A stretch of DNA of 64,000 bases from Trypanosoma brucei (GCA_000002445.1 AL929603.2:512001-576000), one strand, 5' to 3'; positions 5,754 through 63,452 are shown, numbered from the stretch's first letter. Numbers and translations are program-made. Notes: generated by a model from the letters alone, not told the origin.

Positions 5754-6431
5754 ATGGCCACCGAAGCGGAGAAGGCGCAGGTAGGAACGCATCCCATCCA
5801 AGAAACAAATAAATTAATTAGTAGTTCGAACGTAATGAATAATGAGCGACCGGCGGCGTGGAACTTGAAGGGCCGCAGCGCAGTTGCCGCCTTCGATCCC
5901 GTTACACGCCACCGTATCCTCCAGTCCCAAACAATGGCCGCTTGCTTTCATCGTCCGCTAATGGCAACGATGGAGGACCTCATTTCCGTGTCGTACGTCG
6001 GCGGATTGAGTGGTCCACTGCGCAAACCTGAACCGTTTATTTGCCTTATTGCGAGGGTGCTGCAAATAACGCCAAACACCGCTATTGTGATGGCAATGCT
6101 TCGGCAGGACGTGCATAAATATTTGCGCGTTGCGGCACTCTTCATCATTAGGCTTATTGGAAATGGCACCGCGATGCGTGAGGCTCTTAGGATAGGATGG
6201 AATGACTACAGGAAAATACGCGTCTATGGAAGCAAAGATGATTGTACATGTGAAACTAAAAGCCAAGATGGTGAAAAAGCGGATACGAATGAAGTGGAGG
6301 GGGAGGCGCTGGTGGCGGCGCCAATTCACGCAATCATGTGCGTAGATGAAATCACGGATCGTTTGTTCAACACCGGGCGAGAGGGTTACAGCAGCACATG
6401 GTTAGGAGTTAACTTTTCTCCGCTCCTGTGA
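5754..6431 (+). CDS. PRP38: PRP38-family pre-mRNA splicing factor
   Basis: 'KPEPFICLIARVLQITPNTAIVMAMLRQDVHKYLRVAALFIIRLIGNGTAMREALRIGWNDYRKIR' aligns closely with human PRP38A 'KPTPFLCLTLKMLQIQPEKDIIVEFIKNEDFKYVRMLGALYMRLTGTAIDCYKYLEPLYNDYRKIK'. 'MCVDEITDRLF' matches 'MHVDEFIDELL'. The start is placed at the in-frame Met 'MATEAEK' (5754) rather than the upstream ATG at 5712. Confidence 0.8.
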   Translation: MATEAEKAQVGTHPIQETNKLISSSNVMNNERPAAWNLKGRSAVAAFDPVTRHRILQSQTMAACFHRPLMATMEDLISVSYVGGLSGPLRKPEPFICLIARVLQITPNTAIVMAMLRQDVHKYLRVAALFIIRLIGNGTAMREALRIGWNDYRKIRVYGSKDDCTCETKSQDGEKADTNEVEGEALVAAPIHAIMCVDEITDRLFNTGREGYSSTWLGVNFSPLL

Positions 6432-8147
6432 AGCACCCTGTCGCCGCGTACAGTTGGGGATGCGATGGGTGCAATATGGAAGGAAAATTAACTGTGACGG
6501 GTGCGACGTCACCGGAATAGGGGGCATTTCTCCTGCAGAATCAGTCCCCGGAACGTAACCCCGTCCCCGTGCTCTCGATGTTTCTCCTCTCTTTCTTTTT
6601 TTTAAACTCGTGCGTGCAAGGAAATGAGAAAGGAGTAGGAAGTTCTCCCTTCGGTTTGTTTCCACATCCCAGGATTCCGTTCAGATATTTTCACGGTACC
6701 GGTGCCGGGATCTGCGCCCGTGTTTTGCGATAGGAGTTCGACGCGGATGTGGTGGTAAACAGACATTGAGGAAAGGGAAGCCTTCAACACAAATGGAAAG
6801 CGCTGACGGAAGGAATCACACGAAGCAGGAATGAGGAGACGGTTCGACACATCGGCCGGATGCGCAACGTAAGTAATAGGGATTTGGGGTTCCTAAAACC
6901 GACGAATAAATTTAAAGACGCCCAGTCTTCCAGCACCCGCTACACATTCCATGCGAATGTTTTGCGTCGTCTGGAGAGTCCGCGAGCAACAGGCTCCAAC
7001 GGCGGTTTACCTTCGATGGGGTGGCTGGCGCCACATCTCCTCATTCGTACGGGAGCGACTTATGTGTTGCCCTCCTGAGGAAATAACTGGAAGGGAGAAG
7101 CGGAGCGGCTCAACCCAATACTGGAAAGTTCACACAGGAAGCCGTTGGAGCGCAAGCACGTATGGTGGTATCACCACCTGAGTTTCGTGCTTTGGAGGGA
7201 AATTAAACAAACCCTAACTCATAAATGCCTCCGCCCGAGTGCTTCCTCTCCTCTTTGAATCACCCATCATCCGCATATGGTGGATGCGGGGATTTATTGT
7301 CATTATTATCGTTGGCGTTACTTGCGAGCAGCGGCCGCATTCGACTACTGGTCCCTCTCCTTTTTTAGTTAGCGGAAAGGGACGGTCGCAGGAGGGGAAG
7401 CGTTTAAAGTAATTTACAAATGTGAAGGTGGAGAATTCAGCACCGTGTCGCCGCGTGGTCCGCAATTCCCTTTCAGCAAGCACACGTGGGAGCCGGGGTT
7501 CCGTGAAGGTCTTCCAGACCACCCAACACCACGACTGGAGGAAAAGGCCCGCATTATGCCTTCATTTTCATATTTAAGGGCGAGGAATTTAAGAACAAAA
7601 ACAGATAAGAAAAACGAAAGACATGGCGCGGCACATTTGCAGCAACCGTGCGCGTACTCAGATTTATGGTGAGGTGGACTGTTCTAGATGTCAGTGGCAG
7701 CAAAGAAAAACAACTAGACCAGTAACAACCGCTAGCCGCATGGCGGAACGCGACGGCCGGCACCCACACATAACGGTGTCCGCAGCTAAGCGCACGTCAT
7801 TACTTACCGTGTAATGCAAATATCAACCCGGCAATCGTGAAGGAAGTTAACTAACCCATCCCTCCTTCAGGTGGCAAGACGACCCCGGTTTCCATTTGCA
7901 ATTCACTTAAGCCTCTGTCCCGGTTCCATTCAACATCCCCGCCAAATGCCAGCTCCAGTCAGTTAGCATCCTGCTTCCCCAACACGTAAAAAATAAATAC
8001 GGGATTGGTCCCGATGCTTCGTTTTCCCCTCTCCTCCACATCTTTGAATTATCGACGGGTTTAAGCGGCCCGTTTCTTCAGCACCGTAACACAATTAGCC
8101 GAGACTGCTCTCACCCCCATCCGAAGCAGCGATACAAACAGAACACA

Positions 8148-8290
8148 ATGTACCACAACAAATACCAACACAAAATGTTCACAAATCACAGCACTCGTTA
8201 CCCACAATTCCGCGTACGAAAGCACACAGAGGAAAAATTGTACACTATTTCACACGGAGGCAGTGGGTGTCACAAATATCCAATCATCGC
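8148..8290 (+). repeat. Dispersed direct repeat copy A (~130-140 bp), partner at 12293-12410
   Basis: 'atgtaccacaacaaataccaacacaaaatgttcacaaatcacagcactcgttacccacaattccgcg...cggaggcagtgggtgtcacaaatatc' vs 'atgtcacaacaaatatcaacacgaaatattcactaatcacaacactcgttacccacaattccatat...cggaagcagtgtgtgtcacaaatgta'. Roughly 80% identity, same orientation, 4145 bp apart. The two copies bracket the minus-strand VSG-related gene. Confidence 0.85.
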
Positions 8291-9079
8291 TGAAAACAAA
8301 CATAAGCACGACAACGAATGTGAAGGAAATCCCAACCACATACACGTGTACCCAGGACTAAACACCATCAGGCTGGCACTTTGGATTGGAAGTCGAATCT
8401 ACGCAAAAGATAGTGTTCACCAAGAACCTTGCACAATTCCTCCTAGAACTTGAGAAACCCCTCATTCCCTTCCAACATGTACTTTCTTCATTCTGGAGGA
8501 ACACTCCACTCAAGGAGAGACTACATACAATGTTGCCTTCCGTATAAGTGGAAATTGTAACCCCTCGCCCCTGTACATTTGGATCGTAAAAAGGTATGTA
8601 GAAGTCTTGGGACCCCAAATACGGTATTACAGCCATAGCGAATGTTTGACAATTAAATTGTCAGTAACCCGCACTTGCCCCTTACAACTAGTTCCAACCT
8701 AACCTATACAAGTCATTAATAAGACAAATATAGTATTATCTGACACAGATAGTAACAAGCTAATAGCACACTCACAACAGAGCATAATATACAAAAAGAG
8801 TTACATAAAGTTTCTAGCTCCCTTGAGATGTCATGGCATCACCAGAGAGCTCTCCAAACAAACCACCGCTATCTTGATAACGGCACTCAGCATTGCTGGC
8901 AGTTACTGCTAAACAAAAAAAATGATACAACATTCATTATTCATCTTAACAAAACAAATTCATATGATATTACTTATACACTCACATATTTAAGAATTAA
9001 ACAATATGCACACGTGTACATGCACAAACCATTAAAAAAACAAGATGCTACGCAACAATGTTGGTAACGTAACAATAAA

Positions 9080-10462
9080 CTAAAACATACAAAAAAGGGA
9101 AAGAATTAATAGCATAACAACACCAGTTTTCACATCTATATAATAGAAACAATCATTATTTACCCCAGTATCATAACCTTCACTGTCACTTTCACCTTGA
9201 GCTCGGTTACTTTTCCATAGCCCAGCATCACCACCAAGTTTCACCTCAAGAAATATTTCCTCTGCCTCATGTTGGTATTCTTCCAATTCGTGAAGATGAC
9301 TGTCAGACTCTTTGGCATACTTTGCCATTTCTTGTAGTTGCTCGGTGGCGTTAGTAAGATGGTTGTACCAAGGAATCCCACCATTTTCAAGTGTGTGATT
9401 GTAACTGACACATGTGAATCCAGCAGTGTAACCCAGGCACGTGCTATTCTCGTTATGGTCTGTTCTCACGTAGCCAAGAATACCCTTTACCTGATGGCCA
9501 TTCTGTCCCAAATTCACTAATGCATCAAACTGAGCTAATGCACTCTTTAAGGTTTTCACATTAGATGCAACATTTTTGTATGCACAAGCCTTACTAATCA
9601 CATCCCAAGCCTCAGTATGGTTGTATTTTATTTTCTTAGGGTCGCACTTGCTGTTATCACCTTTACAAGAATCAGCCATCATAGTCCAACTACCATTTTC
9701 AGGTCTCCTTATTTCATCCTTGCAAGGACAGTTATATCCATTATATATATTGTCATCACTACTGTCTTCGACATCTGAATCATGGTGATGTGTCCCTCTC
9801 TCTTCTTTCTTAACAATGTCGATAGCCTCCCCAACACATAGGCAGAAGAAGTCATTAATTAGTGTCTTTCCAACTAGCTTGTCTCCAAAAGAACCGCAGC
9901 TCGTGGCTGCATTGTAGACACTATTGAACAGCAGTGATTTGTTTCCTCTCATGGCTTCCTCCAGAGTTTTATTCTCATTTCTTGCCACATCCACAGCGTC
10001 GCCATACACAGCTCTCAACATATTTTCCTCAGCAGAACGACTTGCATTTAGCGATCTTGTCCTATTCACTTCTATTTCTTCCTTAAGTTTTTTAGCCTTC
10101 TCAAATAGTTTCTTCATCTCCTGATATGCTGTCGTGCTGTTAGATGAATTGCTCGAGCCCTTATTGCCAGCAACAGTTTCTGCCTCACTGACCATTTCCT
10201 CCAACTTCTTCAGAATCTCTCCTTCCTTCTCACGATTCTTAAAGGAGGGTTGTGGGGCCTCTGCTTGCGTGATTCGGTAAATCCTGCACAGTGTCTCGAA
10301 TTCACCAACGTTGTGGTGCTTTTCTTCTTGATGGACATTATCCCTGATCGCCCTCCAATCAATCAACTCGGGGGTCCACTTGAAAGACCACATATCACCC
10401 TGAGAGGAAGGAGATAAGACAGCCGCAAGCAACGCAATGGCAAACACTGTTTCGCGCCTCAT
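9080..10462 (-). CDS. VSG-related / VSG-like GPI-anchored surface glycoprotein (lone antisense gene)
   Basis: Minus-strand ORF. Start placed at 'MRRETVFAIALLAAVLSPSSQG' (signal-peptide-like). The in-frame upstream extension 'MSLNNNND...' is rejected. The protein has a long helical/coiled N-terminal region and many N-glycosylation sequons (NSS, NST, NRT, NAS, NKT, NHT, NGS, NAT...). It is Cys-rich in the middle and C-terminal parts ('FFCLCVGEA', 'YNCPCKDE', 'DSCKGDNSKCD') and ends in a hydrophobic GPI-signal-like tail 'GVVMLLILSLFCMF'. Size (~460 aa) and architecture are typical of trypanosome VSG/VSG-related proteins. Exact family not resolved. Confidence 0.6.
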   Translation of the reverse strand: MRRETVFAIALLAAVLSPSSQGDMWSFKWTPELIDWRAIRDNVHQEEKHHNVGEFETLCRIYRITQAEAPQPSFKNREKEGEILKKLEEMVSEAETVAGNKGSSNSSNSTTAYQEMKKLFEKAKKLKEEIEVNRTRSLNASRSAEENMLRAVYGDAVDVARNENKTLEEAMRGNKSLLFNSVYNAATSCGSFGDKLVGKTLINDFFCLCVGEAIDIVKKEERGTHHHDSDVEDSSDDNIYNGYNCPCKDEIRRPENGSWTMMADSCKGDNSKCDPKKIKYNHTEAWDVISKACAYKNVASNVKTLKSALAQFDALVNLGQNGHQVKGILGYVRTDHNENSTCLGYTAGFTCVSYNHTLENGGIPWYNHLTNATEQLQEMAKYAKESDSHLHELEEYQHEAEEIFLEVKLGGDAGLWKSNRAQGESDSEGYDTGVNNDCFYYIDVKTGVVMLLILSLFCMF

Positions 10463-12292
10463 CGTGATTTTGCCTCTACATTCATTAGTCAAAGAGAGGG
10501 ACAAAAGCTTATCATTACAGTCATTATTGTTATTGAGAGACACACCCAGTAAACAAATACATCAATATATCGAAGTTAATAAGTGCCTGGGACAAACCAG
10601 CTGCTGCAGCATCCAACAAAGGGGGAAACACACACCAATACACATATTTACATGGGTTCACCCTCCTAAGCTGCATATTAACATTAAACACCCTCACAGC
10701 TGTTTTCCCATTGATTATCTTACTCTTACATATATCTGCATACAATAAATCCACTTTCTTAAACACCATGCTAGATCCTCCACTTTCCCAAGTGGACTGT
10801 GCTCCAGCCTTTTTGATTTCCTCAACAAGCTTATCTATTCTCCTATCGAGCACCTGTACATTTATGTTAAAATTATCCAAATCCTCCATTGGCTTTATTA
10901 ACTTCGGCTGCTACCTTATTGCTTTATTCGCTAGCACATTGCGTACTTAATCCGGACACATGTGTTACCTTTATCCAATGAACACCACTTTGCCGTTAAG
11001 CTTTATTTAGCATATCATCCTTTCTTCATGCATGTGCTGACACAACACTCTTCGTTGCCCTCTCTGCGTGCATGCACAGCTCCTTGCCTTCCATTTTCTT
11101 AAATCACACACTCTTAAAGGTAACAGTTAAATTTTCAAAACGCTTTCATTAGACACTTGTTTTTATTGAAACGTTTCATAATACTGTGATATGATGGAAT
11201 ATTATGTTAGTTGCCAACACACAAAACAGTCCCAGAACAACAAGTGACCTTCCCCATCAGCATCCTCATTTATATTATTTGCGACATAAAAATAATCACC
11301 ATCCTCTCAGTTAACTCTTGCCATCCTCACACCATATGCAAAGAGCATTAACACACTCCACCACCCCAGAGGAAAAATAATGGAGGGGCAGCCTTATTTA
11401 TCATCACTCACGATTAAAATAACTCAAAACAGAAACACTCCAACGAAAGAAATTATAACCTACGACAAACATGTAAGCACACACATGCAAAGATATGTAT
11501 GTTTATCACTATTGTGGGGAGGAGGAGTTATTTATATGAATGCACTTCCTCATAGTAATACAACTAGTACTATTCACACTGCCAATAAGATTCGTGTCGA
11601 GTTGCAGTTAGGCAACATTTCTGTTTACTTCGCTAAAGCATGAAAGGGTGTAAAAAATATATCTGACATCAGCTGGAGGTAAACGGAAGACGATTATTCA
11701 GTAGCATCGAAAAACAATGATGAGAGAAGTGAAGATGTCATGCACTTCATTGACAGAAAGAAAACATTTACATTTCACTAAACAATTAAAGTCATTTACA
11801 GAGCCACTCATAAATAAATTATCCCGTGGAATGGGGCACCTGCTTATGCTTCCACTGACACAATCCCATAATGGACGATATTCGCCATATTGGGATACGG
11901 ACTTACCTATTTAATATCACCCCATACCGTGATAACTGTCTCCATAATAGCCGTGTAGTACGTATTTGCTTTCACAAGAGCATTATATCATATATTGCTT
12001 ACTTCCCTGACACATTCATTATCTTCAGCGAATAATACACCAGCCTTAGCTACAAGATATCCCATTACACTCCAATAAGATATATGTTATCCCTGTCAGT
12101 CACTTTCACTCTGACATCAAACATACAGGATGCTATTGTGTATACTTCCCCATTAACAAACAAGTCCTGCTCCTCACCCCTAACGTAAAGTTCTCTTCAG
12201 TTTATTCAAAAGTTAACTAACACAACATACAAACATAATTAGCTTATATTTTGGGAAATCATATACTGATCCGCTGATACATGCTGCAACAC

Positions 12293-12410
12293 AACATGTC
12301 ACAACAAATATCAACACGAAATATTCACTAATCACAACACTCGTTACCCACAATTCCATATTCTAAAACACATACACTACTTTAAACGGAAGCAGTGTGT
12401 GTCACAAATG
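12293..12410 (+). repeat. Dispersed direct repeat copy B (partner of 8148-8290)
   Basis: See copy A. It contains the shared core 'cactcgttacccacaattcc' and 'cagtg[gt]gtgtcacaaat'. Confidence 0.85.
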
Positions 12411-15400
12411 TATAATCTTAGTAGCAAAAAATGTTTTATGCAGTATAACACTGAATAACATAACCAACACTGCTACAAGGGATGTTAAACCCATTAGGAT
12501 ATGCTACTGCTTTTTCGTCCTTAAAACATTATTACCTATCATATATCCATCATCCACACTTCCCTTGCGTTTCCTTGCGCTCTCGCTGAAACGTTTACAG
12601 AGAATCAGGCTCTGGGATAACAATTCTTTCAATCTACTTTGATGCCCAGTAAAGGAAACAAAGATCAGCTCTACATCACCGTACTGTTTGGTAATACTCT
12701 CCTATCCGTTTCTAACCAAACTAGTTGCTGATAAGCTAGGGCACTATGTCACTGCACATTAGGGTGACAACACCATCCCTATGGTAGGTAACGAAACCTC
12801 CAGTAGTTCCCACTATGAAGGATCCAGCCCCTCCATTTGCAACATCTTCCGTACCCATGATCCAGCTTTCCATATTGTTATTGGCTGTGAATTCAACCAG
12901 TTAGTTGTATAATTATTTGTGTAACCAATATACCGTCATTTGGCATATCTTCAGTGAAGGACATACTACAGCTCATTGGAGACTCCACCGTGTCGTTCTA
13001 ATGGCCATTTACTCCACCACTCACAGATTCATTTCCCTCTTCTGAATAGACAGCTTTCTCCTTCACAAGACAACAACCATTTGCCTTAACATCTGTTTGT
13101 TCAAACACCATTACCAGATCCTTCAACACTTGTCCAATTGACAATGATGCATTCACAACATGATTAGACACTCTTACTTCGTTTAAATAACTTGCATCTA
13201 TTACCTGTCCAGGTTCATCTGTATTCTCCACTATCTTCCTCAACCCCTGCATTATTGTTTTCCCTTCCCTCCCCTTTATACCATTCTGACGTCACCACTC
13301 CTAAAATCCATTCAACATTCCCGTCGCCTCCGATTGTTATTTTCAAAAACACTAGCACTCACAACACTTAAGGAATAGCTGAGGTTACATAACCCCATGG
13401 TGATGCAGGCCACCCCAACTCACCGCCAGAGCCTGGTGCCGTACTCAGGTAAGAAAAGAAAAGCGACCGCAGCCTACTCCACTAGGATGAAGTTCAGACG
13501 GAAAGTCCAAGGCATCAATTCACAGTGGGGCACACACCAGATCCGTTACAGAACGGGAATTATTCCCAGAAACAACCTGTGTACGTGCAAGAAAAGAAAA
13601 GAGGCACATTTCGCTTCCTCTCTCTAGGGAGTTGTGGCCTCATTATAAATGTTTTTCGTAAACTCTTTTCATAACTTTAACTGGACTGTCGGGCACACTC
13701 TACGGAAGAGTGGTGTAGCGTTTTTATTTTAATATAACTTTTTTTTATGTTTTATGCATGCTTGCCATGAGAACAAATCTCAAATCGCAGGTAAGCGTAT
13801 TCACACCGAAGATAGGGATGTTCTCGCACCGTTGGCAGAGCTATTGTCACGACGTGCATCAGCCAATGTGGCGAAATGACCCTGAGGAGTGGCATGTCCT
13901 GCGCGGTGGGCATGGAAGAGCACGGTGTTACGAATGATAAATAATGAACCTTATTCTCCGCCGGAGAGCGTCCAGGGGAGAAGCGCTCTTTTGTTAGAAA
14001 ACGAGTCCCTGCCACTTGTGTATGCGACGCTCGTGGTATTCGCCAGTCATTGGAAAGGGGGAAAGTATCGTTTACACAATATTGCCGTAATGGTAGTCCC
14101 CCCCCCAAAAGTTTCAAGTCTTTGAATCGATCTTTCTTCTGTATCGATGCAGATGGTTACGTTGGCATAAGCGTCACGGTATTGTTCGCATCGTTGGGGA
14201 ATCGGGCTATGCGTTGGTGAGGGCGAGAGGACAACGGGAAGCAATGAACCGGAAACAGTTTGGATGTACAGACACGGTGCGGCGCCTCGTCCCTCTCCCC
14301 CTCTGATGTGTTGAGCGGCCGTTGCTCTTTTCGTGCAGCTGAGGGATTCGAGAGGCGGCGCCCCCCGGTCCAGTTCCCGACTCCCTTGTGGCGGGAAAAT
14401 TGCTGTCGCTTCTAATGGAAGTGCCCTTGATGTTGGAGGTGTTACAGCTGCCATTTCACGACCGGCGGGTATCCGTGCCGTGAGGCTGAAGGCGCATTCG
14501 GGGGGTTGTCCGGCGGTTGTTCGCCGCGGCGGTTCCGTCAGTGGCCACACTTCGCCTTTTACTTTAATACTTTAGTGGGGTTGTTGTGCTTTAATTATTT
14601 ATTTTATTTTCTTAAATGGTCCAATGTTGTCGGCTTGCGGAAGGGGTGGGCGTGTATTCTTTGTCGCCGGTCCTCTTCCTCCTTTTTTTCCTGCTGGGTA
14701 CGGGGCGCATTTGTTATGTGTTTTCGGTCTGGGGCGTTATCTATTTTTTTTTCGGTTCGAGCCGCGCAAATTTACATTCAAACCAGTAAAATACATGGGG
14801 TTGGGTCGGATCAATGTGGTAGAGAATTTTACACGAACGCGTCCGCTGTATGCATAGACGGGAAGAGGTGCATGGGGACATCCGTTTCTGTTGGATAAGT
14901 GGGTGCATCTGTGTATTTGTTTCTTTTGTTCCCCAACGGCGTCACCATTGAAATGTGTTTTTTCTTTGCTTTCAGAGGTGCAGTGGAGTATTTTGCCAAT
15001 ATTTGGTCGCGGCGCGTTTCTATCCGCTGTTAAGGCCAACTTCACGCGGTGTCTGTGTATTCGGTGAAGGTAAGCGCGGACATTGCCACCTGCTGGAATG
15101 AGGACCGTTTTATAGCATTAGTAGCGGCAACACTCTCCTGACATTGTGCTTCCTCACTACTTATTGGGATTTTTTTTTTTGGTGGCATACTTTCGGTGTA
15201 ATTGTTTTGAACGGTTGGGGTGCAATATCCGAAAGTGCTACCGATTGCGGCAGGCGCGGCTTATCTTTGAACATTTGTGTATAGTTGTTTTTTTTTTTTT
15301 CACGGTAGGTGTTAGCATTAAATGTCACTTTTGAGATATTTTTGATGTTTTTTTTTTTCTTAAATCCTAGCCGCTACTCGATTTCACAGCGGTCTACGTT

Positions 15401-18400
15401 ACAATTGGGTATTTTCGTTTAATTGCACCGAATCCGGACGGTATTAACTATAGAAACCACAGTGATGTTCTTCTATTCTCTATTTACGGCTGTCTCGTTG
15501 CAATTCCTGTTTGCTGTGTCGGTATGGCGATTAGTTCCCCCTTTTTTTTTGAATGTATGCAACATGTATATTTATAACCGTGTTGTTTGCAAGTTTTTTG
15601 TTAGGTAGGGCTGTTGGAAGAGTTAATGTTTACGGTATCCCTCTTCCAAAGCAATTGGCGAAGTTACTGACATGCCGAAGGATTAGCTCCCACTTTATTA
15701 TTTCGGCAACTTCCAGGGGGGAAGGGAGAAAACTAACCCTAGTCATATGAATCTCTTACGACAGCGGGTTGGCCGAACGGTCAATTTTCGCCGTCGGAGT
15801 CTTGAAGTATAATTTTCGTTCGATATGGATTAGATGTTGTAACTTCCTAATAATTTTGCGGTCATTTCTCGGTGTAGCAACAGATTTACGCGCCGCACCG
15901 GGATTACGTGCGTTTCCAAGGTCTTTAACATTTAAAGCATTGTCAACAACTGCTGTCGGATTTTTTTTTAAATGTGGAATTAGAAATTATTAAATAGCGT
16001 TTTGGTTACTCACAATAAGTAATTCTATGCCAACACGAAGTGACTTGGCTGGGCGCATTGCATATTTCGAATATGGAGTAATGAATATCTTTTTTATCGT
16101 TATGTTGGGATAAATACGAAAAATATTACGCTTGTTGTTTCTGTTCTACTTTGAAGTTATTGCATCATGTACGATGCAATAACGGAAGTTCTTCCAATAA
16201 TTTGGACAATGAAGCCCCGCACGCTTAATTTGTTTATATAAAGTGTGTTGTTGCTGATTCTTTTTGGAGTTTGTCTCTCTGTTCTTTTTTGTTTTTTTTT
16301 AAATATAAGTACCTGGGGGGAATGCGGAGCGAGAAAACGGATGTTGGAACTGTCGATTTAGCTTTCCTATTATTATTTCTGGCTAGGGACTCCAATGGTG
16401 GAATTAAGTTACTTCTAAATCATTTTTTTTCCAAAGGAAAGTAGTTACTCAGTATTGTAAAAGGTTTCGTCCGTTGTAGGTTTGTATTATCATGAAACAG
16501 GTAGTTGTAACGTATATACCATTCTTTTTTACTTTTATGCCATGCAAATTAATAATAGTAATAAGTGATGACCTGTAGCTTGATTTAAGCCGTGTTACTC
16601 GCAATTGTTTTTATTACTCTTTGAACTGTTGGCATGATCGTTACATTTTTTGAATTTTTGCGAAGAATGTACCCCTCGTGAGCTATTACTCTCTTGATAT
16701 GAATATTCAGTTGATTGAGTTGACTTCTTTCTTTGACTGTTTTTTTTTTTTAATCAGGGTTAATGCTCTTTCATTTTATTGATATCAGAACATGTGTATT
16801 ATATTGGTAAACTTTGTATCGATGCAAAAACTATCTTTTTTTTTTTTACCGTCAGAGGTTTGAATTTGCGTTTTACCCCATTTGAGGAGCATGCACAAGT
16901 TTTTGTTTTTTGTCTTTAGCTTTTGCTTGTGCAACTGTAAGCACTTGTTTATTATTATTATTATCTTATACTTAATTTCCTATGGTACAGTGACGTTATG
17001 ATCATTATATATATATATATATATACTTCTTATTGAATTGTAATGTAACGACCACATTTTCAGAGAGGCCGTGAAAAGAATACTCTAACCTTGCTTTCCT
17101 TTTTATATTAAATAAAACATGAAGTAGTTATTTCATAACTTTACTGACGCCCATAATAAGTTGTCTGTTTCTATTTCTTCTAAAGGGGGGAGGCACGTGG
17201 TCAGGTCGAAGGCGCATCCCCAATGTTATTTTCTTCATCTCCATGGGCAATGTCAATTAACGGTGCTTTCAATACCATTCCTTTTAATGATTTCCTTTAA
17301 TATATCAAATATTTTAAATGAGTCCTGCACCTTCGTTGTCGGATTTATACCGAACTGGGCACTGTGGTAAAGCTGGTTGAAAAAAAGATAGCGAAAACAA
17401 CAAAAACGGTCTTTGTTTTTTGCTGTTGATTTCACTCAGGACATGAAAACAATAAATTTGAGTATCTTAACTGTTAAATTGGTACATACATTGGTGAATC
17501 AAATGCGTTGTGGTGGTGATAACTGATTTAAAATATCGCACTCAATTTTTTTGATACGTTAGTTCTATCTGAGTGATTTGGATGTATTTCCTTTGACGAT
17601 ACGCTTGCTTTTCTAAAGAAACGTTATCACTAATGTTGTTGTTCCCTTCTTTATTGTATAGCTTGTTGCCAGTAGACACTTACTTTATTGGTTCTGCTTC
17701 ATGATATCTTCAAGCTAAAAATTTGTTGTAAACCTTGTTTCGTTGCATTCAATTTTGATCGGTTTCTTTCTCTTATCGGTTATGTTTTATTATAATTGTT
17801 TTGTCATCAGTATTTGTGTGAAGCAGGCACCAGTCTTCCTTCTCTGGAGAACTTTAAAGGCGGAGGAATTTTTTACCTCTCCCATAAAGTTGAACTTTAG
17901 CCTTTTCCATTATCTTTTTAAAAAATCTGACTAAATATCTTTGTGGGATAAGAAACTAGCAGTGCCTCATAGCATTGACATCCCGGTCACTCTTCTCTGC
18001 CCAGCACATGGTATTGTTAAAGAACACATGTATATGTTGCTGTTGTTTGTTTTTATATAAGCTTTTAAGTAACATCACAGATATTTTGGTTTATGAAGTT
18101 CACTCCTTTCGTCATCAATTGCTTGGAGTATGTGTGGTCTGCAACTGATTTTTTTTTGCCGTTTATTTGTTTTGTCCTTTCTTTTTTAAAAAGTGTCCCA
18201 CCAAAGGGCATGCCAATAATCTACCCTTCGTGGTCGCACGTCTTTCTTTTTTTTTTTTTGACATCCAATCTCATTTCCTCCATTACAGTGCCGTTGTAAG
18301 ATATGTTTTTTTTTTTAATTCTTTCGGACGGGGATTAATGACCAAAAGTACCAAAAAGGAGAGACGGAGGCGAGAAAAGAAAATGTGGCCGTTTTACCTA

Positions 18401-19582
18401 AATGTTAGTCTCTTCCCTTGTCTTCTCTTCCACAGCCTTTGAAGTTTTCAACCATCGTAGGTACTTTTTTATTCTTTTTTTTATTCGGTTAGAAATTTTT
18501 TTTATTGCTGTCAAGATCTTTTGTTTTAGTAATGTTTGTCCTCTTTTATTCTTGTGTAATTATGTAAACGCCCTTTTGTCTTGGGCTTGAGACTTTTTAT
18601 TCCATGACTGTTTATGGGAACTCGTGTGTTATACATTTGTTAGAGGCCCCTTTTCCGTGCTTTCTCTTTTTTGGGGGGAGGGGAGTTTGCGAAAGGGATT
18701 ACCAAGTTGCACCCCCAAAATTATTAATAATAATAATATACATTTGTTCTTAATGCGTATCAATAGCAAATAAATACCAGGGATTTGTCTTTTAGAAGCT
18801 CTCACCGCATCGCGCAGGAGACAAGTTCAGAAAAGTAGTAGCATTCTCTTATAGGCTTGTTCTTAACTTTGAAATATTTTATTTACTTTCCATTTGCTCT
18901 CTCTCTCTGTGAATGGGTTTGCTGCCTCACAAATTTTCAATACTCATTATGTATATCGTTTCTTTTCCCAACGCTTTCACACATTTGACATTGGGTAGGA
19001 TAAGTCAGTGACTTATCCGTTTTGTTTTCAATTAGACGTGGTGAAGTGAATTGAAGTGTGTCCCGTTGCTATGTAGGGGTGTTTGAAACACAGTGTAGGT
19101 GGGGAAGTAGTTGGTTAACTTTTCTCATGTGTGCACTTGTGTCGTGTGATAGGTAATTGCTTTCCTTTTTATTCATTTCCTAAAAAAACACTATGTGCCC
19201 TCCATACCCTGCGGAAAGATTAGTTGTGCTCTGATAAAGGGATGTGTTTTATATGTTCATGTGATGAGATTAAGTTATTCTGGCGCTGCGACGGATGGTA
19301 TGGCACTTTGTGATTTAAATGTACTTTCAGGAAGCTGTATTGTGCTATCGGTGGGTTTTGTGTGGTAATGCGCGCACTCGTTGTTTTAGCAGGCTTCGCT
19401 GCTGCTTTAGTTGTTGTGTGTTTGTTATCAGCGATTTATTTTTCCGATCCCTTATGCAGTGAATTGCATCGGTCCCTATATATACGTCCCCCCTTTTTTC
19501 ACACTGGTACACGGAGGATAGGGTTATTTGAGAATAAGCGAATCCAAGCATATCTCTTATCCTTAAGCATCAGGGGCAAGAT

Positions 19583-22500
19583 ATGTCGGAGTTCGAACTT
19601 ATGAGTGAACTGAGTGAAAGCGCAGCAAAGGGTGCGCTCAGCGAACAGGCAGAAGATGGTCATCGTACCTACTCTCCTGGGCCTGAAGAGGAAGAAAACC
19701 CTGATGCAGCAGGGCGTGAAGGCGCGGCAAAAGATGGATTGGATGCTCATGCTGAAGAGGCCTCCCCAGCGCCATCACCTGCAGGTGAATCGGATGAAAA
19801 GGCCAGCAAATCTGAGCATGAAAGTGAGGCAAAGGAAGGGTCGGATGGCCGTGCTGAAGAGGCCTCCCCAGCGCCATCACCTGCAGGTGAATCGGATGAA
19901 AAGGCCAGCAAATCTGAGCATGAAAGTGAAGTGAAGGAAGGGTCGGATGGCCGTGCTGAAGAGGCCTCCCCAGCGCCATCACCTGCAGGTGAATCGGATG
20001 AAAAGGCCAGCAAATCTGAGCATGAAAGTGAAGTGAAGGAAGGGTCGGATGGCCGTGCTGAGGAAGCTTCCCCAGCGCCATCACCTGCAGGTGAATCGGA
20101 TGAAAAGGCCAGCAAATCTGAGCATGAAAGTGAAGTGAAGGAAGGGTCGGATGGCCGTGCTGAAGAGGCCTCCCCAGCGCCATCACCTGCAGGTGAATCG
20201 GATGAAAAGGCCAGCAAATCTGAGCATGAAAGTGAAGTGAAGGAAGGGTCGGATGACCGTGCTGAGGAAGCTTCCCCAGCGCCATCACCTGCAGGTGAAT
20301 CGGATGAAAAGGCCAGCAAATCTGAGCATGAGAGTGAGGCAAAGGAAGGGTCGGATGGCCGTGCTGAGGAAGCTTCCCCAGCGCCATCACCTGCAGGTGA
20401 ATCGGATGAAAAGGCCAGCAAATCTGAGCGGGAAAGCGGGACCGCTGACGGGTCAAGCGGTCGTCCTGAAGAAGTTTCCCATGCGTTTTCACCTAATAGG
20501 GAATTGGAGGACAAGGCCAATAAATCGGGAGGCGAGAGTGTGACCAAGGGCTCGGATGGCCGCCCCGAAGATATTTCTCATCCGTTTTCACCTAATAGGG
20601 AATTGGAAGAAAAAGCCAATAAATCGGAAGGCGAGAGTGTAACCAAAGATGGATCGGATGGTCATGCTGAAGAAACGTCTCCAGTGCAGTCACCTGAAGG
20701 AGAGGTAGGCGAAAGGTCTGCCGGGGCAGGATCTGATCATGAGAAACAGAAAGGCGAATCATGTTTCGATGACCGTGACACTGGCAATGATCAAGCTGTT
20801 GACCGCAATGCTCACGATGCAGCGCCCCATTTGGACGACAAACACACCAATGGGGCCGCTGCAGATGCTACCGATGCACCACGCCACACTCAAGAGGTCA
20901 ACGACCTGTTCAAGCCTCGAATGACACCTTACAAACAGCCTGACCGTTGGGATCCCATTGAAACCTATCTGGGAGAGGATGTCAGTGATGAGTTGGAGAT
21001 CACCACGGCACGTAAGCCCGTTTTCACCGATGAGGAGAAAGCTGACGTGCCAACCTTTAAGAATGGCGAACCAGACTATGAGGGTGAGTACCTTTCATGT
21101 TTCGATGAGCCTAATCTGCTGTACCGTATTTACAATCGTGAGGAGAAGACGTGGGCCTTCTACAACGACACATACAGCTATGAGATGCATGTACGATTCA
21201 CCTTTGCTAAACTCTCAAAACTTCAGGCACTGGGGAACACGAAGATGTACACTCAAGAGACAGGTGAGCATATTGCGGAAGTCATTGTATATCCTCGGGA
21301 GACCGAGATGTTCGTCAAGGGAAATGCTAATGGCTTTACAAGCAAGCTTCGAGCAGTCCCTCTAACGGAGGAGTACTACGCCCGGCGGCAAGAATTGGCA
21401 AACAACAAGATTCAAGAAGAAATCGCTCGCGTCAAAAGTATCGTTGGCGATGTAACAGATTCGGAGCAGGTTCTCAAGGCCTGTGTTGAAAATGGCATCC
21501 CTTTTGTTGACCTTGAGTTTCCACCATGTCAAGACTCTTTGGCGACCGGTGCAAAAAAGCCGTTCAAACGCCTTCCATGGGTTCGTCCTTCGCAATGCCT
21601 CCCCGATTACATGGCTGATCAGGTGCGCCTCTTCCGAGGACCAATTCGACCTGGCCAGGTGGACCAAGGAGAACTGGGTGACAGTTGGGTCATGTGCTCT
21701 ATAGCGGTGCTGACGGAGCGACCAGACAAGGTCGTCAACATGTTTCGTCACCCAACTGACCCAGAATTGGGTAAGAAGGAGCGTTCTGTGGGCGGTTACC
21801 GCGTATCTCTCAACAAGAATGGGCAATGGCGCAGCGTGATTGTGGATGACTATCTTCCCATGTCTGGTGGCAGGCTAAAATATGCAAAAAGCAGATACGA
21901 CCTCGCGGAAATATGGCCATGCATTCTGGAGAAAGCCTTCGCCAAGCTGCATAATAGTTATGCCAATATCTGCTCCGGTGATCCTCTCCACGCCCTCCAA
22001 GATATGACTGGTTTCCCGACCTCCAGGTTTGACGACGCCTTTGCCAACGCTCCCTTGTCTGGGAAGGACGATCTGTTCCAGGACTGGGTGAGGTATGTGA
22101 AGGCACAGTACCAGATTATCTTAAGCACACCTGGAAAGAATCCAAGAGACAAAGCTTCCGGCGAATGCCACACAGCAAGGCGGTACACAAGCGTGGGTCT
22201 CCTTACAGGTCATGCGTATGTGGTTCTCGATGCAGCATTCTTCCCCGAGTATGAGTTACGTTTGGTAAAGCTGCGTAATGCCTGGGGTCGTGGGTCGGAG
22301 TGGAACGGCGACTGGTCTGACGGCGACGAAAAGTGGGAACGGTATCCAGATGTGGCGGTGAAGTGCGGTTACAGCAATGGTGAGAGCGATGGCACGTTCT
22401 GGATGGCGTGGGATGCATGCTTGCGCTACTTTAACGGCGGGGGCGTGTGCTTCACGAGGAACTCAATCAACGATTACCGTGTACCCTCCACGTTTGTAAA

Positions 22501-58481: not shown

Positions 58482-59810
58482 ATGCGCGAAATCGTCTGCG
58501 TTCAGGCTGGCCAATGCGGCAACCAGATCGGCTCAAAGTTCTGGGAGGTGATCAGTGACGAGCACGGTGTGGACCCCACAGGTACCTACCAGGGTGACTC
58601 TGACCTGCAGCTGGAGCGCATCAATGTGTACTTTGATGAGGCAACGGGAGGTCGCTATGTGCCCCGCTCCGTGCTGATTGATCTGGAGCCAGGTACAATG
58701 GACTCCGTACGTGCTGGCCCCTATGGTCAGATCTTCCGCCCCGACAACTTCATCTTTGGACAGTCTGGCGCCGGCAACAACTGGGCAAAGGGCCACTACA
58801 CGGAGGGTGCGGAACTGATCGACTCTGTGCTCGATGTGTGCTGCAAGGAGGCGGAGAGCTGTGACTGCCTCCAGGGCTTCCAGATCTGCCACTCCCTTGG
58901 TGGTGGTACTGGCTCCGGCATGGGTACGCTGCTCATCTCGAAGCTTCGCGAGCAGTACCCTGACCGTATCATGATGACTTTCTCCATCATCCCATCCCCC
59001 AAGGTGTCCGACACTGTCGTCGAGCCGTACAATACGACTCTCTCCGTGCACCAACTTGTGGAAAACTCCGATGAGTCGATGTGCATTGACAACGAGGCAC
59101 TGTACGATATTTGCTTCCGCACCCTGAAACTGACAACACCAACGTTCGGTGACCTGAACCACTTGGTGTCTGCTGTTGTGTCCGGCGTCACCTGCTGCCT
59201 GCGCTTCCCTGGTCAGTTGAACTCTGACCTCCGTAAGTTGGCTGTGAACCTTGTCCCATTCCCGCGTCTGCACTTCTTCATGATGGGCTTCGCCCCGCTG
59301 ACCAGCCGCGGCTCGCAGCAGTACCGCGGTCTCTCCGTGCCCGAGCTAACGCAGCAGATGTTCGATGCGAAAAACATGATGCAAGCTGCAGATCCTCGTC
59401 ACGGCCGCTACCTGACAGCGTCTGCACTCTTCCGCGGCCGCATGTCGACGAAGGAGGTTGATGAGCAGATGCTGAACGTGCAGAACAAGAACTCGTCCTA
59501 CTTCATTGAGTGGATCCCGAACAACATCAAGTCCTCTGTTTGCGATATCCCACCCAAGGGACTCAAGATGGCTGTCACCTTCATTGGCAACAACACCTGC
59601 ATCCAGGAGATGTTCCGCCGTGTGGGAGAGCAGTTCACCCTCATGTTCCGTCGCAAGGCGTTCTTGCACTGGTACACTGGCGAGGGTATGGACGAGATGG
59701 AATTCACGGAGGCAGAGTCCAACATGAACGATCTCGTGTCTGAGTACCAGCAGTACCAGGATGCCACGATTGAGGAGGAGGGCGAGTTCGACGAGGAGGA
59801 GCAATACTAG
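58482..59810 (+). CDS. TUBB: Beta-tubulin (copy 1 in window; first gene of the tubulin array)
   Basis: 442 aa, '[17 protein letters not shown]...[12 protein letters not shown]...[12 protein letters not shown]'. Canonical beta-tubulin. Identical in amino-acid sequence to the copy at 62124. Confidence 0.98.
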
Positions 59811-60441
59811 ACGCGGACGGGGCATTTCCCGTTCGTCATTAGCAGTAGGTAATGAAGATGTTTGTTTCTCGTCCCCTTTCTCCTTCGTCCTTCTGTCATT
59901 TTGTTCTTTTGTGTTTATGTTTTGTTGTTTTTTTCTTTAATTTTTTTTTTCTTCCACGTTTGTGTACATCCGCGCGCCACTCTATTCAGAGAGCCACGGA
60001 TAGTAGAGGAGGTGGGAAGGGTATATGAGGGACACGCGTACCATGATGTGGGATGTATTGGGGTCCCTGTCTGTCCTTACGTGACTATGTATGAACCGTC
60101 ACGTGTAAGATGAGCTAGTGAGATCAACAGTACAACTCATCAACACGCCTTCTTCTCGTTAAATGTACACAATCTTGATCCTCCACCTTTATGGGTCCCA
60201 TTGTTTGCCTCTTCCGCTGTGTGGAGTGCGCCTACACGCACTTCTCACTTCGTAAGTGGTGGTGGCGTAAGTATTCCCTAATGTTGACTCTATGTTCTCC
60301 TCTCCTCACCCCCTCGCGGTGCTGATTTCTGACAGATCTTCAAACACTAGTTTAAGCAAAGGACTATTCATCCGTTTATATTAGCAACAGTAGGTACTAG
60401 CACCACTAACAACAACAACAAAGCACTTCTATTTATTTATC

Positions 60442-61797
60442 ATGCGTGAGGCTATCTGCATCCACATTGGTCAGGCTGGTTGCCAGGTTGGTAACGCCTG
60501 CTGGGAATTGTTCTGCCTGGAACACGGCATTCAACCCGATGGTGCGATGCCCTCTGACAAGACGATTGGCGTTGAGGATGATGCGTTCAACACCTTCTTC
60601 TCTGAGACTGGTGCTGGCAAGCACGTTCCCCGCGCGGTGTTCTTGGACCTGGAGCCAACAGTGGTGGATGAAGTGCGCACTGGCACGTACCGCCAGCTGT
60701 TCCACCCCGAGCAGCTGATCTCCGGCAAGGAGGATGCGGCCAACAACTACGCTCGTGGCCACTACACCATTGGTAAGGAGATCGTCGACCTCTGCCTGGA
60801 CCGCATCCGCAAGCTCGCTGACAACTGCACTGGTCTTCAGGGCTTCCTCGTGTATCACGCCGTCGGCGGTGGCACTGGTTCTGGCCTGGGTGCGCTGCTC
60901 TTGGAGCGCCTCTCCGTGGACTATGGCAAGAAGTCCAAGCTCGGCTACACGGTGTATCCATCACCGCAGGTGTCGACGGCTGTCGTGGAGCCCTACAACT
61001 CTGTGCTCTCGACACACTCACTTCTGGAGCACACCGATGTTGCTGCGATGCTTGACAATGAAGCAATTTATGATTTGACTCGCCGCAACCTCGATATTGA
61101 GCGCCCCACGTACACCAACCTGAACCGCCTCATCGGTCAGGTGGTTTCCTCGCTGACAGCGTCCCTCCGCTTCGACGGTGCATTGAACGTGGATCTGACA
61201 GAGTTCCAGACAAACCTTGTGCCGTACCCACGTATCCACTTCGTGCTGACAAGCTATGCACCAGTCATCTCCGCAGAGAAGGCCTACCACGAGCAACTCT
61301 CTGTCTCTGAGATCTCGAACGCTGTGTTTGAGCCCGCCTCCATGATGACAAAGTGCGACCCCCGCCACGGCAAGTACATGGCGTGCTGCCTCATGTACCG
61401 TGGTGACGTTGTGCCAAAGGATGTGAATGCTGCCGTCGCGACCATCAAGACGAAGCGCACGATTCAGTTCGTGGACTGGTCTCCCACAGGCTTCAAGTGC
61501 GGTATCAACTACCAGCCACCCACGGTGGTGCCAGGTGGTGACCTTGCCAAGGTGCAGCGCGCGGTATGCATGATCGCCAACTCCACGGCCATCGCAGAGG
61601 TGTTCGCTCGTATTGACCACAAATTCGATCTCATGTACAGCAAGCGCGCCTTCGTGCACTGGTACGTCGGTGAGGGTATGGAAGAGGGTGAGTTCTCCGA
61701 GGCCCGTGAAGACCTTGCAGCACTTGAGAAGGACTACGAAGAGGTTGGTGCCGAGTCCGCGGATATGGACGGTGAGGAGGATGTGGAGGAGTACTAG
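60442..61797 (+). CDS. TUBA: Alpha-tubulin
   Basis: 451 aa, '[30 protein letters not shown]...[12 protein letters not shown]...DGEEDVEEY'. Canonical alpha-tubulin with C-terminal Tyr. Confidence 0.98.
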
Positions 61798-61984
61798 AAA
61801 GTGTGACAACGTCGCACCATGTGTAGGTTTTCATTTACGTTCTTTCTTTCTTTTGTGAATTTGTTTTCTGTCTCAAATGTTTTTAATTCGCTTGGGACCT
61901 ATGTTTTTCTTGTTTTTTTGCTCACCCTTTGTGTAGGAGGCATCCTGTCACGTCTGTGGTTGCGTGTATGCCTTCCTTCCCCTT

Positions 61985-62073
61985 ATTCGCTTCTTCCTGT
62001 CGTGTCACACCTCTTTCTCTCTCTCCCTTTCCGCCTTTTCTTTCAATCTTGTTTTCTCGACCAGCCCTACTAG
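61985..62073 (+). promoter_or_regulatory. Polypyrimidine tract + AG in the alpha->beta tubulin intergenic region (candidate beta-tubulin SL acceptor; equivalent copy at 58343-58431)
   Basis: 'ttcttcctgtcgtgtcacacctctttctctctctccctttccgccttttctttcaatcttgttttctcgaccagccctactag' precedes the beta ATG (62124) by ~50 nt. This is a classic kinetoplastid trans-splice signal architecture. Confidence 0.55.
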
Positions 62074-62123
62074 AGGAGAAAGAATAGTAACCCTTTCATC
62101 AAAGAAAATAGTTCAAACGAATT

Positions 62124-63452
62124 ATGCGCGAAATCGTCTGCGTTCAGGCTGGCCAATGCGGCAACCAGATCGGCTCAAAGTTCTGGGAGGTGATCAGTGA
62201 CGAGCACGGTGTGGACCCCACAGGTACCTACCAGGGTGACTCTGACCTGCAGCTGGAGCGCATCAATGTGTACTTTGATGAGGCAACGGGAGGTCGCTAT
62301 GTGCCCCGCTCCGTGCTGATTGATCTGGAGCCAGGTACAATGGACTCCGTACGTGCTGGCCCCTATGGTCAGATCTTCCGCCCCGACAACTTCATCTTTG
62401 GACAGTCTGGCGCCGGCAACAACTGGGCAAAGGGCCACTACACGGAGGGTGCGGAACTGATCGACTCTGTGCTCGATGTGTGCTGCAAGGAGGCGGAGAG
62501 CTGTGACTGCCTCCAGGGCTTCCAGATCTGCCACTCCCTTGGTGGTGGTACTGGCTCCGGCATGGGTACGCTGCTCATCTCGAAGCTTCGCGAGCAGTAC
62601 CCTGACCGTATCATGATGACTTTCTCCATCATCCCATCCCCCAAGGTGTCCGACACTGTCGTCGAGCCGTACAATACGACTCTCTCCGTGCACCAACTTG
62701 TGGAAAACTCCGATGAGTCGATGTGCATTGACAACGAGGCACTGTACGATATTTGCTTCCGCACCCTGAAACTGACAACACCAACGTTCGGTGACCTGAA
62801 CCACTTGGTGTCTGCTGTTGTGTCCGGCGTCACCTGCTGCCTGCGCTTCCCTGGTCAGTTGAACTCTGACCTCCGTAAGTTGGCTGTGAACCTTGTCCCA
62901 TTCCCGCGTCTGCACTTCTTCATGATGGGCTTCGCCCCGCTGACCAGCCGCGGCTCGCAGCAGTACCGCGGTCTCTCCGTGCCCGAGCTAACGCAGCAGA
63001 TGTTCGATGCGAAAAACATGATGCAAGCTGCAGATCCTCGTCACGGCCGCTACCTGACAGCGTCTGCACTCTTCCGCGGCCGCATGTCGACGAAGGAGGT
63101 TGATGAGCAGATGCTGAACGTGCAGAACAAGAACTCGTCCTACTTCATTGAGTGGATCCCGAACAACATCAAGTCCTCTGTTTGTGATATCCCACCCAAG
63201 GGACTCAAGATGGCTGTCACCTTCATTGGCAACAACACCTGCATCCAGGAGATGTTCCGCCGTGTGGGAGAGCAGTTCACCCTCATGTTCCGTCGCAAGG
63301 CGTTCTTGCACTGGTACACTGGCGAGGGTATGGACGAGATGGAATTCACGGAGGCAGAGTCCAACATGAACGATCTCGTGTCTGAGTACCAGCAGTACCA
63401 GGATGCCACGATTGAGGAGGAGGGCGAGTTCGACGAGGAGGAGCAATACTAG
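62124..63452 (+). CDS. TUBB: Beta-tubulin (copy 2)
   Basis: Protein identical to the 58482 copy. Nucleotide-identical over all segments compared. Confidence 0.98.

Follow-up and report, generated by a model that had tools for sequence, protein, structure and literature searches.

In the bloodstream VSG expression sites that Trypanosoma brucei carries, the genes ESAG2, ESAG11 and ESAG1 stand in a conserved order, and ESAG11 is mostly a pseudogene there (PMC2567434). ESAG2 is considered to be derived from a b-type VSG (PMC3605285), and the expression-site ESAG2 protein has been located on the cell-body membrane of bloodstream forms (PMC4587319). Kolev 2010 listed among its putative RNA polymerase II (Pol II) transcription units a minus-strand entry of the class "Divergent" that reads "Tb927.1.2040 to Tb927.1.2040", with Tb927.1.990-2000 and Tb927.1.2100-2770, both plus strand, as its neighbours (Table S14, PMC2936537). 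Here we report on the locus of that gene, an island in a 64,000-nucleotide stretch of T. b. brucei TREU927 chromosome 1 (512,001-576,000), hereafter the window. Very probably, the island derives from the distal part of a bloodstream VSG expression site, the ESAG2-ESAG11-ESAG1 segment, as a chromosome-internal relic that lies in inverted orientation between the PRP38 and calpain gene blocks. We are confident to much the same degree that its gene is an ESAG2 and forms a one-gene transcription unit, and less so that Pol II is the polymerase that reads it. The ESAG2, YIF1 and zuotin proteins encoded in the window are identical to TREU927 entries of that chromosome. A window coordinate is the chromosome coordinate minus 512,000, since published tables put this ESAG2 at chr1:521080-522462; AG acceptor dinucleotides that directly precede published spliced-leader (SL) sites in the window sequence confirmed the offset.

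The island extends from the end of the PRP38 gene at 6431 to the start of the first calpain-like gene at 19583. A first-pass annotation, made from the sequence alone, had noted one convincing open reading frame (ORF) on the minus strand between two plus-strand gene blocks, and the sole long ORF within 6432-19582 is indeed on the minus strand, at 9080-10543 with its first ATG at 10462:

9080-10462, minus strand: intact ESAG2 gene Tb927.1.2040 (Pfam VSG_B, named ESAG2 homologues, exact match to CAJ16269.1)

Its product of 460 aa matches PF13206 VSG_B with an E value of 3.1e-25 and 89.6 bits (cut-off 25), and its database relatives (15/15) are all named ESAG2, ESAG or GRESAG2. Full-length relatives cover 97-100% of the query at 63-91% identity, the highest value being that of the syntenic T. 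b. gambiense gene (91%), with other copies, including those of expression sites, at 63-78%. The gene had been called VSG-related, and comparison of its protein with known families returned strong similarity; "VSG-like" is correct and ESAG2 is the exact name, because of the VSG_B match, the ESAG2-named relatives and the view of ESAG2 as a b-type VSG derivative. Judged by sequence, Tb927.1.2040 is a member of the ESAG2 lineage with a b-type VSG domain. By inspection, the protein carries 11 N-x-S/T sequons, 13 cysteines, a hydrophobic N-terminus (mean hydropathy 2.0 at residues 5-19) and a hydrophobic C-terminal tail (2.3 over the last 17 residues), in agreement with the earlier description of the protein as Cys-rich; it is a VSG-derived surface glycoprotein, probably anchored by glycosylphosphatidylinositol (GPI).

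The locus belongs to the core of chromosome 1, has housekeeping genes on either side and is syntenic in T. b. gambiense DAL972 and T. equiperdum. Tb927.1.2040 lies outside a telomeric bloodstream expression site and is therefore a chromosome-internal (GRESAG2-type) copy. A tandem-repeat search of 6-19.5 kb returned just a TA run and a weak 21-mer, and no 70-bp repeats; this absence, together with the position in the chromosome core, sets the gene apart from a canonical VSG. No second ESAG2 of the same type was found by tblastn of Tb927.1.2040 across the window.

Much of what surrounds the gene is also of expression-site kind. For comparison we used, in place of the TREU927 paralogue loci, two ESAG2-bearing loci of T. 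b. gambiense DAL972: a subtelomere resembling a bloodstream expression site (BES), with ESAG2, ESAG11, ESAG1, a RIME piece and 70-bp-type repeats (L003), and a chromosome 11 internal cluster of the order PAG-PAG-ESAG2-ESAG2-ESAG11-ESAG1 (L002). The L003 ESAG1 query was verified as ESAG1 by Pfam (9e-116). The features that border Tb927.1.2040 in the block between 8.1 and 13.4 kb are these, in the order of the minus strand:

12459-13392, minus strand: ESAG11 pseudogene (tblastn E 1e-67, residues 39-367, four pieces in three frames)
12736-12873 and 12998-13252, minus strand: annotated ESAG11 fragments Tb927.1.2060 and Tb927.1.2070, both inside the ESAG11 pseudogene
12288-12431, minus strand: direct repeat copy A, read as the 3' untranslated region (UTR) of the ESAG11 pseudogene, 28 nt past the end of the ESAG11 homology
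11850-12193, minus strand: N-terminal half of an ESAG1 pseudogene, frameshifted (tblastn, L003 ESAG1 residues 13-145, E 8e-18, two frames)
10593-10964, minus strand: relic comprising the C-terminal third of another ESAG2-like gene, a divergent one (tblastn, P0018 residues 360-487, 36%, E 2e-13)
8917-8987, minus strand: ESAG2/ESAG11 intergenic spacer and first ESAG11 codons, a stub (blastn, L003 11518-11591, 77%)
8263-8800, minus strand: spacer segment as found between ESAG1 and the 70-bp repeats of L003 (blastn, tblastx)
8142-8299, minus strand: direct repeat copy B, ESAG11 3'UTR-like, read as the remnant of a second, mostly deleted ESAG11

The ESAG11 pseudogene is 5'-truncated near codon 36-39 and frameshifted. 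The ESAG2-like relic was found solely with the divergent chromosome 11 ESAG2 as query and not with Tb927.1.2040; it overlaps the annotated Tb927.1.2050 ("hypothetical, unlikely", 10530-10889, minus strand) and sits within 1 kb that is homologous to the L003 region upstream of ESAG2, a homology that reaches 11468. At the other end of the block, 8592-8270 aligns to L003 15723-16051 (blastn, 76%, E 3e-59), and tblastx lengthens the match to 8800. Two short minus-strand ORFs had been described as VSG-like in the first-pass annotation; both exist, and the one at 10530-10889 does overlap the ESAG2-like relic, but that at 12998-13252 belongs to ESAG11, which is ISG-like (PMC3605285).

Along the minus strand, the order is ESAG11 pseudogene, ESAG1 pseudogene, ESAG2-like relic, ESAG2, ESAG11 stub and second ESAG11 3'UTR. 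Because it fits the expression-site order ESAG2-11-1, the block may be viewed as two partial clusters of that kind, set head to tail on the minus strand and consistent with a tandem-cluster history. Tb927.1.2040 is the only gene still alive in it.

The two direct repeats are as had been described, about 4.1 kb apart and about 80% identical: copies A and B are 76-82% alike in gapless pieces, differ by a 14-nt indel and stand 4146/4132 nt apart from start to start. Their local alignment scores 70, against 10.6 +/- 1.6 for shuffled sequence (0/1000 shuffles as high), and there is no third copy within the 64-kb window. Both align to the first 150-175 nt past the L003 ESAG11 stop codon, copy B with a score of 28 (shuffled 10.8 +/- 1.5, 0/1000) and copy A with a score of 30 (shuffled 11.4 +/- 1.7, 0/1000), and a 14-nt stretch of the L003 3'UTR is kept in copy B and lost from copy A. 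Since both copies align to that 3'UTR, homology identifies the repeats as two ESAG11 3'UTRs and not as the ends of a cassette, which ties them to expression-site material and not to an unrelated dispersed element.

Published transcript ends, base composition and chromatin together place this block in a transcription unit of its own. The transcripts and switch regions around it are as follows:

6621-7226, plus strand: Tb927.1.2000 (hypothetical), last transcript of the left plus-strand unit (SL site chr 518621, poly(A) 519226; PMC2936537)
7226-7593, no strand: convergent switch point and putative termination zone (last plus-strand poly(A) site 7226, last minus-strand poly(A) site 7593)
7593-8703, minus strand: non-coding transcript Tb1.NT.44, downstream of ESAG2 (SL site chr 520703, poly(A) 519593; PMC2936537)
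13420-15550, no strand: divergent switch region with a putative shared start region (48-52% G+C, skew flip, Bdf3, first plus-strand SL sites at 15552-15605)
15593-18323, plus strand: non-coding transcript Tb1.NT.26, first of the calpain-tubulin unit (SL site chr 527593 with 63 reads, poly(A) 530311-530323; PMC2936537)
19583-23023, plus strand: calpain-like cysteine peptidase gene Tb927.1.2100, first protein-coding gene of the downstream plus-strand unit

The ESAG2 mRNA has its SL site at 10475 (13 reads) and its poly(A) site at 8807, giving a 13-nt 5'UTR and a 273-nt 3'UTR (PMC2936537). To its left, an AG dinucleotide precedes the SL site of Tb927.1.2000 in the window, and this transcript marks the reach of plus-strand transcription; Tb1.NT.44, which also has an AG acceptor, includes repeat B and has a longest ATG ORF of 92 aa. 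To its right, Tb1.NT.26 has SL sites at 15552, 15593 and 15605 and poly(A) sites at 18311-18323 (PMC2936537), occupies much of the "gene-poor" spacer, has a longest ATG ORF of 68 aa and is probably a non-coding RNA that heads the calpain-tubulin unit. From the published SL and poly(A) positions, the units converge between 7226 and 7593; the published SL positions place their divergence in the interval from the ESAG11 pseudogene (13.4 kb) to 15.55 kb. The opposite-strand SL sites on either side of the latter gap (minus strand 10475, plus strand 15552-15605) were checked against the sequence, and the ORFs in 13420-15550 have no family match.

The plus strand is A/C-rich over ~7.5-13.8 kb and G/T-rich, chiefly in T, over ~13.9-19.5 kb, as the first-pass annotation had observed in outline, and the G+T skew changes sign at 7.2-7.6 kb and again at 13.6-13.9 kb. 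CUT&RUN sites have been called for Bdf3, which reads start-site chromatin, at window 14654-15054 (chr 526654-527054) and 9726-10126 (PMC9241505 Table S4). Skew, SL and poly(A) sites and Bdf3 thus agree with the earlier proposal of a convergent switch, at ~7.2-7.6 kb, and a divergent one, at 13.4-15.5 kb; the tiny antisense transcription unit proposed with them was already in print (Kolev 2010 Table S14, PMC2936537). Scans of the whole window for tRNAs and Rfam families returned no match, and neither switch is marked by an RNA gene.

Tb927.1.2040 is one of the 442 transcripts listed as robustly regulated when bloodstream and procyclic forms are compared (Nilsson 2010, PMC2916883 Table S2). It is marked "up" there, as are PGKC and other ESAGs, and PEPCK and ATP synthase beta have the opposite mark; going by these marker genes, "up" would mean bloodstream. 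The ESAG11 fragment Tb927.1.2070 has been reported as lowered in a procyclic-like drug-resistant line.

Based on these observations, we suggest that Pol II initiates in both directions from one start region at ~13.4-15.5 kb, the polymerase and the exact starts being putative. The long arm would run rightward across the non-coding transcript and on into the calpain-tubulin unit, and the short one leftward for ~6-7 kb. The latter would yield one trans-spliced, polyadenylated ESAG2 mRNA and one non-coding transcript, presumably ending where it meets the PRP38 unit at ~7.2-7.6 kb. Bloodstream enrichment of the ESAG2 mRNA would then be set post-transcriptionally, probably through its expression-site-derived 3'UTR.

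Several points weigh against this account of the block and its transcription. Procyclic forms give few ESAG2 SL reads (13; PMC2936537), and the ESAG11 fragments have no transcript detectable in procyclics. The second Bdf3 site, 9726-10126, falls within the ESAG2 coding region and not upstream of it (PMC9241505), and the choice of Pol II and the start positions rest on a published "putative" assignment and a chromatin reader. In the block itself, 11.47-11.85 kb and 8.80-8.92 kb have no match among the sequences compared, and the two-cluster history is a reconstruction.

Comparison of TREU927 with T. b. gambiense DAL972 (locus L001) and T. equiperdum OVI (locus L009) bears on whether the ESAG2 gene is functional. 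Within the T. brucei group so compared the island is collinear, as the synteny comparison called for at the outset now shows, and both repeats are present in DAL972 and T. equiperdum; it is therefore older than the split of these genomes. Nucleotide identity is 87-96% across 8-13.5 kb, whereas in the flanking genes it is 98-100%: the expression-site-derived block (8000-13500) is a sharp divergence hot-spot among the three genomes, diverging 5-10 times faster than its flanks. At the protein level, ESAG2 orthologues are 91.5-93.9% identical, against 99.5-100% for YIF1 and zuotin. The ESAG2 ORF is nevertheless intact in 3/3 genomes, with a dS of 0.17 and a dN/dS of 0.21, and is under purifying selection.

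These values speak to the first rival explanation, in which the block is a dead relic, its ESAG2 drifting towards a pseudogene and the RNA a functionless by-product of the calpain unit's bidirectional start. In its favour, all else around ESAG2 in the block is already pseudogene, procyclic read counts are low, and the block diverges fast. An ORF kept intact in three genomes at that dS and dN/dS does not fit it, nor does an mRNA that is correctly trans-spliced 13 nt before the ATG, polyadenylated and robustly stage-regulated in two data sets; in view of purifying selection and of this regulated, correctly processed mRNA, we regard the explanation as improbable.

The divergence is also patchy. 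The genome that T. equiperdum groups with is TREU927 at 12-13 kb and DAL972 at 11-11.5 kb, and at 10.5-11 kb all three are distinct; some tracts of the block are common to paralogues. Over the first 350 nt of ESAG2, orthologues are 97-99% conserved, but likeness to the paralogues is just 56-82%; over its 3' third, the gene of TREU927 stands as near to the chromosome 11 paralogue (0.92-0.95) as to its own orthologue (0.89-0.97). This mosaic grouping and the paralogue-like 3' third of ESAG2 suggest ectopic gene conversion where paralogues are similar enough. When conversion tracts were looked for by a runs test, the outcome was marginal, with P values of 0.066 (number of runs) and 0.008 (longest run), and old allelic haplotypes may be an alternative source of the pattern.

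We raise as a tentative possibility, and hold it to be rather doubtful, that the core ESAG2 is an active exchange partner of other ESAG2 copies and not a passive fossil. Conversion would then keep rewriting the middle and 3' part of ESAG2 and its pseudogene neighbours into strain-specific mosaics, and selection would keep the ORF and its locus-specific 5' end. If this were so, the locus would hold a core-genome, Pol II-expressed, hypervariable surface-protein gene. The ESAG2 locus would lie wholly within start-site chromatin, a position by which recombination might be favoured.

A second rival, which we rate marginally below the drifting pseudogene, would make the ESAG block a small RNA polymerase I (Pol I) unit, as in expression sites and procyclin loci. 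Veitch 2010 (PMC2837033) floats Pol I for Tb11.01.6210-6250, Tb927.1.4880-4900 and Tb927.1.5100-5180, clusters at convergent switches that are 20- to 600-fold up in bloodstream forms; the Tb927.1.2040 locus has gene content as in those clusters, likewise borders a convergent switch, and gives an mRNA enriched in bloodstream forms. However, Tb927.1.2040 is classed by Kolev 2010 among putative Pol II units of divergent type (PMC2936537), Bdf3, a mark of Pol II start regions, is present on the locus (PMC9241505), and the sequence upstream of 13393 has no match in either the chromosome 11 cluster or the BES-like locus. Moreover, even the loci that Veitch et al. studied showed them no homology to a Pol I promoter, and the Tb927.1.2040 locus is absent from their co-regulated clusters (PMC2837033).

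We hold as very improbable a 4.1-kb cassette with a VSG-like gene, inserted or tandemly duplicated and bounded by the direct repeats, as the first-pass annotation had supposed: two 150-nt repeats 4.1 kb apart do flank ESAG2, and the degenerate related ORFs expected upstream are there, but the repeats are read above as internal parts (3'UTRs) of two ESAG11 copies and not as bounds, the expression-site homology runs ~1 kb past repeat A, to 13392, which contradicts a bounded cassette, the residual tandem-duplication homology looked for between 8.1-12.3 kb and 12.3-16.4 kb amounts to nothing but the 150-nt repeat, and no second ESAG2 of the same type accompanies it.

The relic of an expression site reconstructed here lies at a break in synteny, because a conserved gene is missing next to PRP38. 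In T. cruzi and L. donovani, PRP38 is followed directly, on its own strand, by a conserved gene common to both (35% aa identity, 2e-18); neither the T. brucei window nor the T. vivax locus has this gene, and no trace of the genes downstream of PRP38 in T. cruzi and Leishmania is left anywhere in the window. In T. vivax, T. cruzi and L. donovani, PRP38 has no calpain, ESAG2 or ESAG11 gene within 10 kb, and tblastx of the island against those three PRP38 loci gave noise only. In T. vivax, PRP38 is followed by 10 kb without called genes, the distal part of it G+C-rich (~0.6), and the ORFs there have no Pfam match.

The putative start region holds a RIME insertion polymorphism. At window position 14601, a 0.5-kb RIME is present in DAL972 and T. 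equiperdum, and the TREU927 site is empty; the target duplication is the 12-nt TTTAATTATTTA (window 14590-14601), and the element occupies L001 5360-5868 and, on the reverse strand, L009 15344-15836. The T. equiperdum RIME comes with a loss of ~209 nt (window 14602-14809) that overlaps the published Bdf3 site, and T. equiperdum is also without ~150 nt just upstream of the ESAG11 pseudogene (window 13535-13685), which TREU927 and DAL972 retain. A further candidate adjoins the point at which the ESAG11 homology stops (13393):

13395-13419, plus strand: candidate 5' end of an old ingi/RIME-type retroposon (21/25 match to RIME positions 1-25)

This 25-mer is the window's best match, ~5.8 sd above shuffles and not significant by BLAST alone; on this thin evidence, it hints that an old retroposon cut ESAG11 short.

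Two patches of 48-52% G+C, at 6432-8141 and 13420-15000, border the expression-site-derived block and are 98-99% conserved in DAL972. They have no long ORF, Pfam match, protein match or likeness to the other trypanosomatid loci compared; a concatenated-ORF protein search of them was likewise empty, a weak test, since even DAL972 hypothetical ORFs went unrecovered by it.

All genes that flank the island are on the plus strand. Upstream are those for zuotin/DnaJ, YIF1 and PRP38; downstream come three calpain-like genes, others and the tubulin array. Tb927.1.2100, the first of the downstream genes, matches Pfam Peptidase_C2 (3e-57) and DUF1935 and has an SL site at 19515 with 1328 reads (Kolev 2010). 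In its 5' part lies a 102-nt tandem repeat (19750-20436, plus strand, 6.7 copies, 96% matches) that codes for an acidic 34-residue repeat. Two more calpain-like genes, a Raptor-like gene, a NAP gene and a thioredoxin-like gene occupy 24-57.5 kb, and the tubulin array of chromosome 1 begins with the beta/alpha/beta genes at 58482-63452 (plus strand; 442, 451 and 442 aa).

This ESAG2, the pseudogenes beside it and the unit that it forms by itself were already annotated and published. We add minor details: where the repeats come from, ESAG1 and ESAG2-like relics that had no annotation, a divergence hot-spot and a RIME polymorphism. The ESAG11 3'UTR origin and the unannotated relics could tidy the annotation, the hot-spot suggests that the locus is small and handy for work on how core and expression-site ESAG copies exchange sequence, and beyond such bookkeeping the significance is little. 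The locus may serve as an example in three respects: of T. brucei-specific surface-protein genes lodged at strand switches and synteny breaks, of expression-site material copied into the chromosome core, and of a Pol II unit with a single gene in an organism noted for 100-gene units.

Set beside a bloodstream VSG expression site (PMC2567434), the island has the same genes in the same order and orientation, an ESAG11 pseudogene as in most sites, and spacers and UTRs homologous to the BES-like subtelomeric locus of DAL972. It differs in being chromosome-internal, 520 kb into the core, without 70-bp repeats, VSG or telomere, in being probably read by Pol II, and in having ESAG2 alone intact. With the clusters of Veitch et al. 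(PMC2837033), it has in common ESAG2 and ESAG11 (and ESAG1), a convergent switch beside them, bloodstream-enriched mRNA and an absence of synteny with other kinetoplastids; unlike them, it is far more decayed, with one gene left, and makes up the entire short arm of a divergent switch. The VR genes and Fam1 b-type VSG derivatives (Jackson 2013, PMC3605285) resemble Tb927.1.2040 in being VSG-derived, with a signal peptide and a GPI-type tail (candidates, by inspection, in Tb927.1.2040), and are likewise found beside a strand switch and biased to the bloodstream stage, but by sequence (63-91% identity) Tb927.1.2040 falls in the ESAG2 lineage and not in VR or Fam1. From the short Pol II units of Kolev et al. 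(PMC2936537) it does not differ, being itself an entry in their Table S14.

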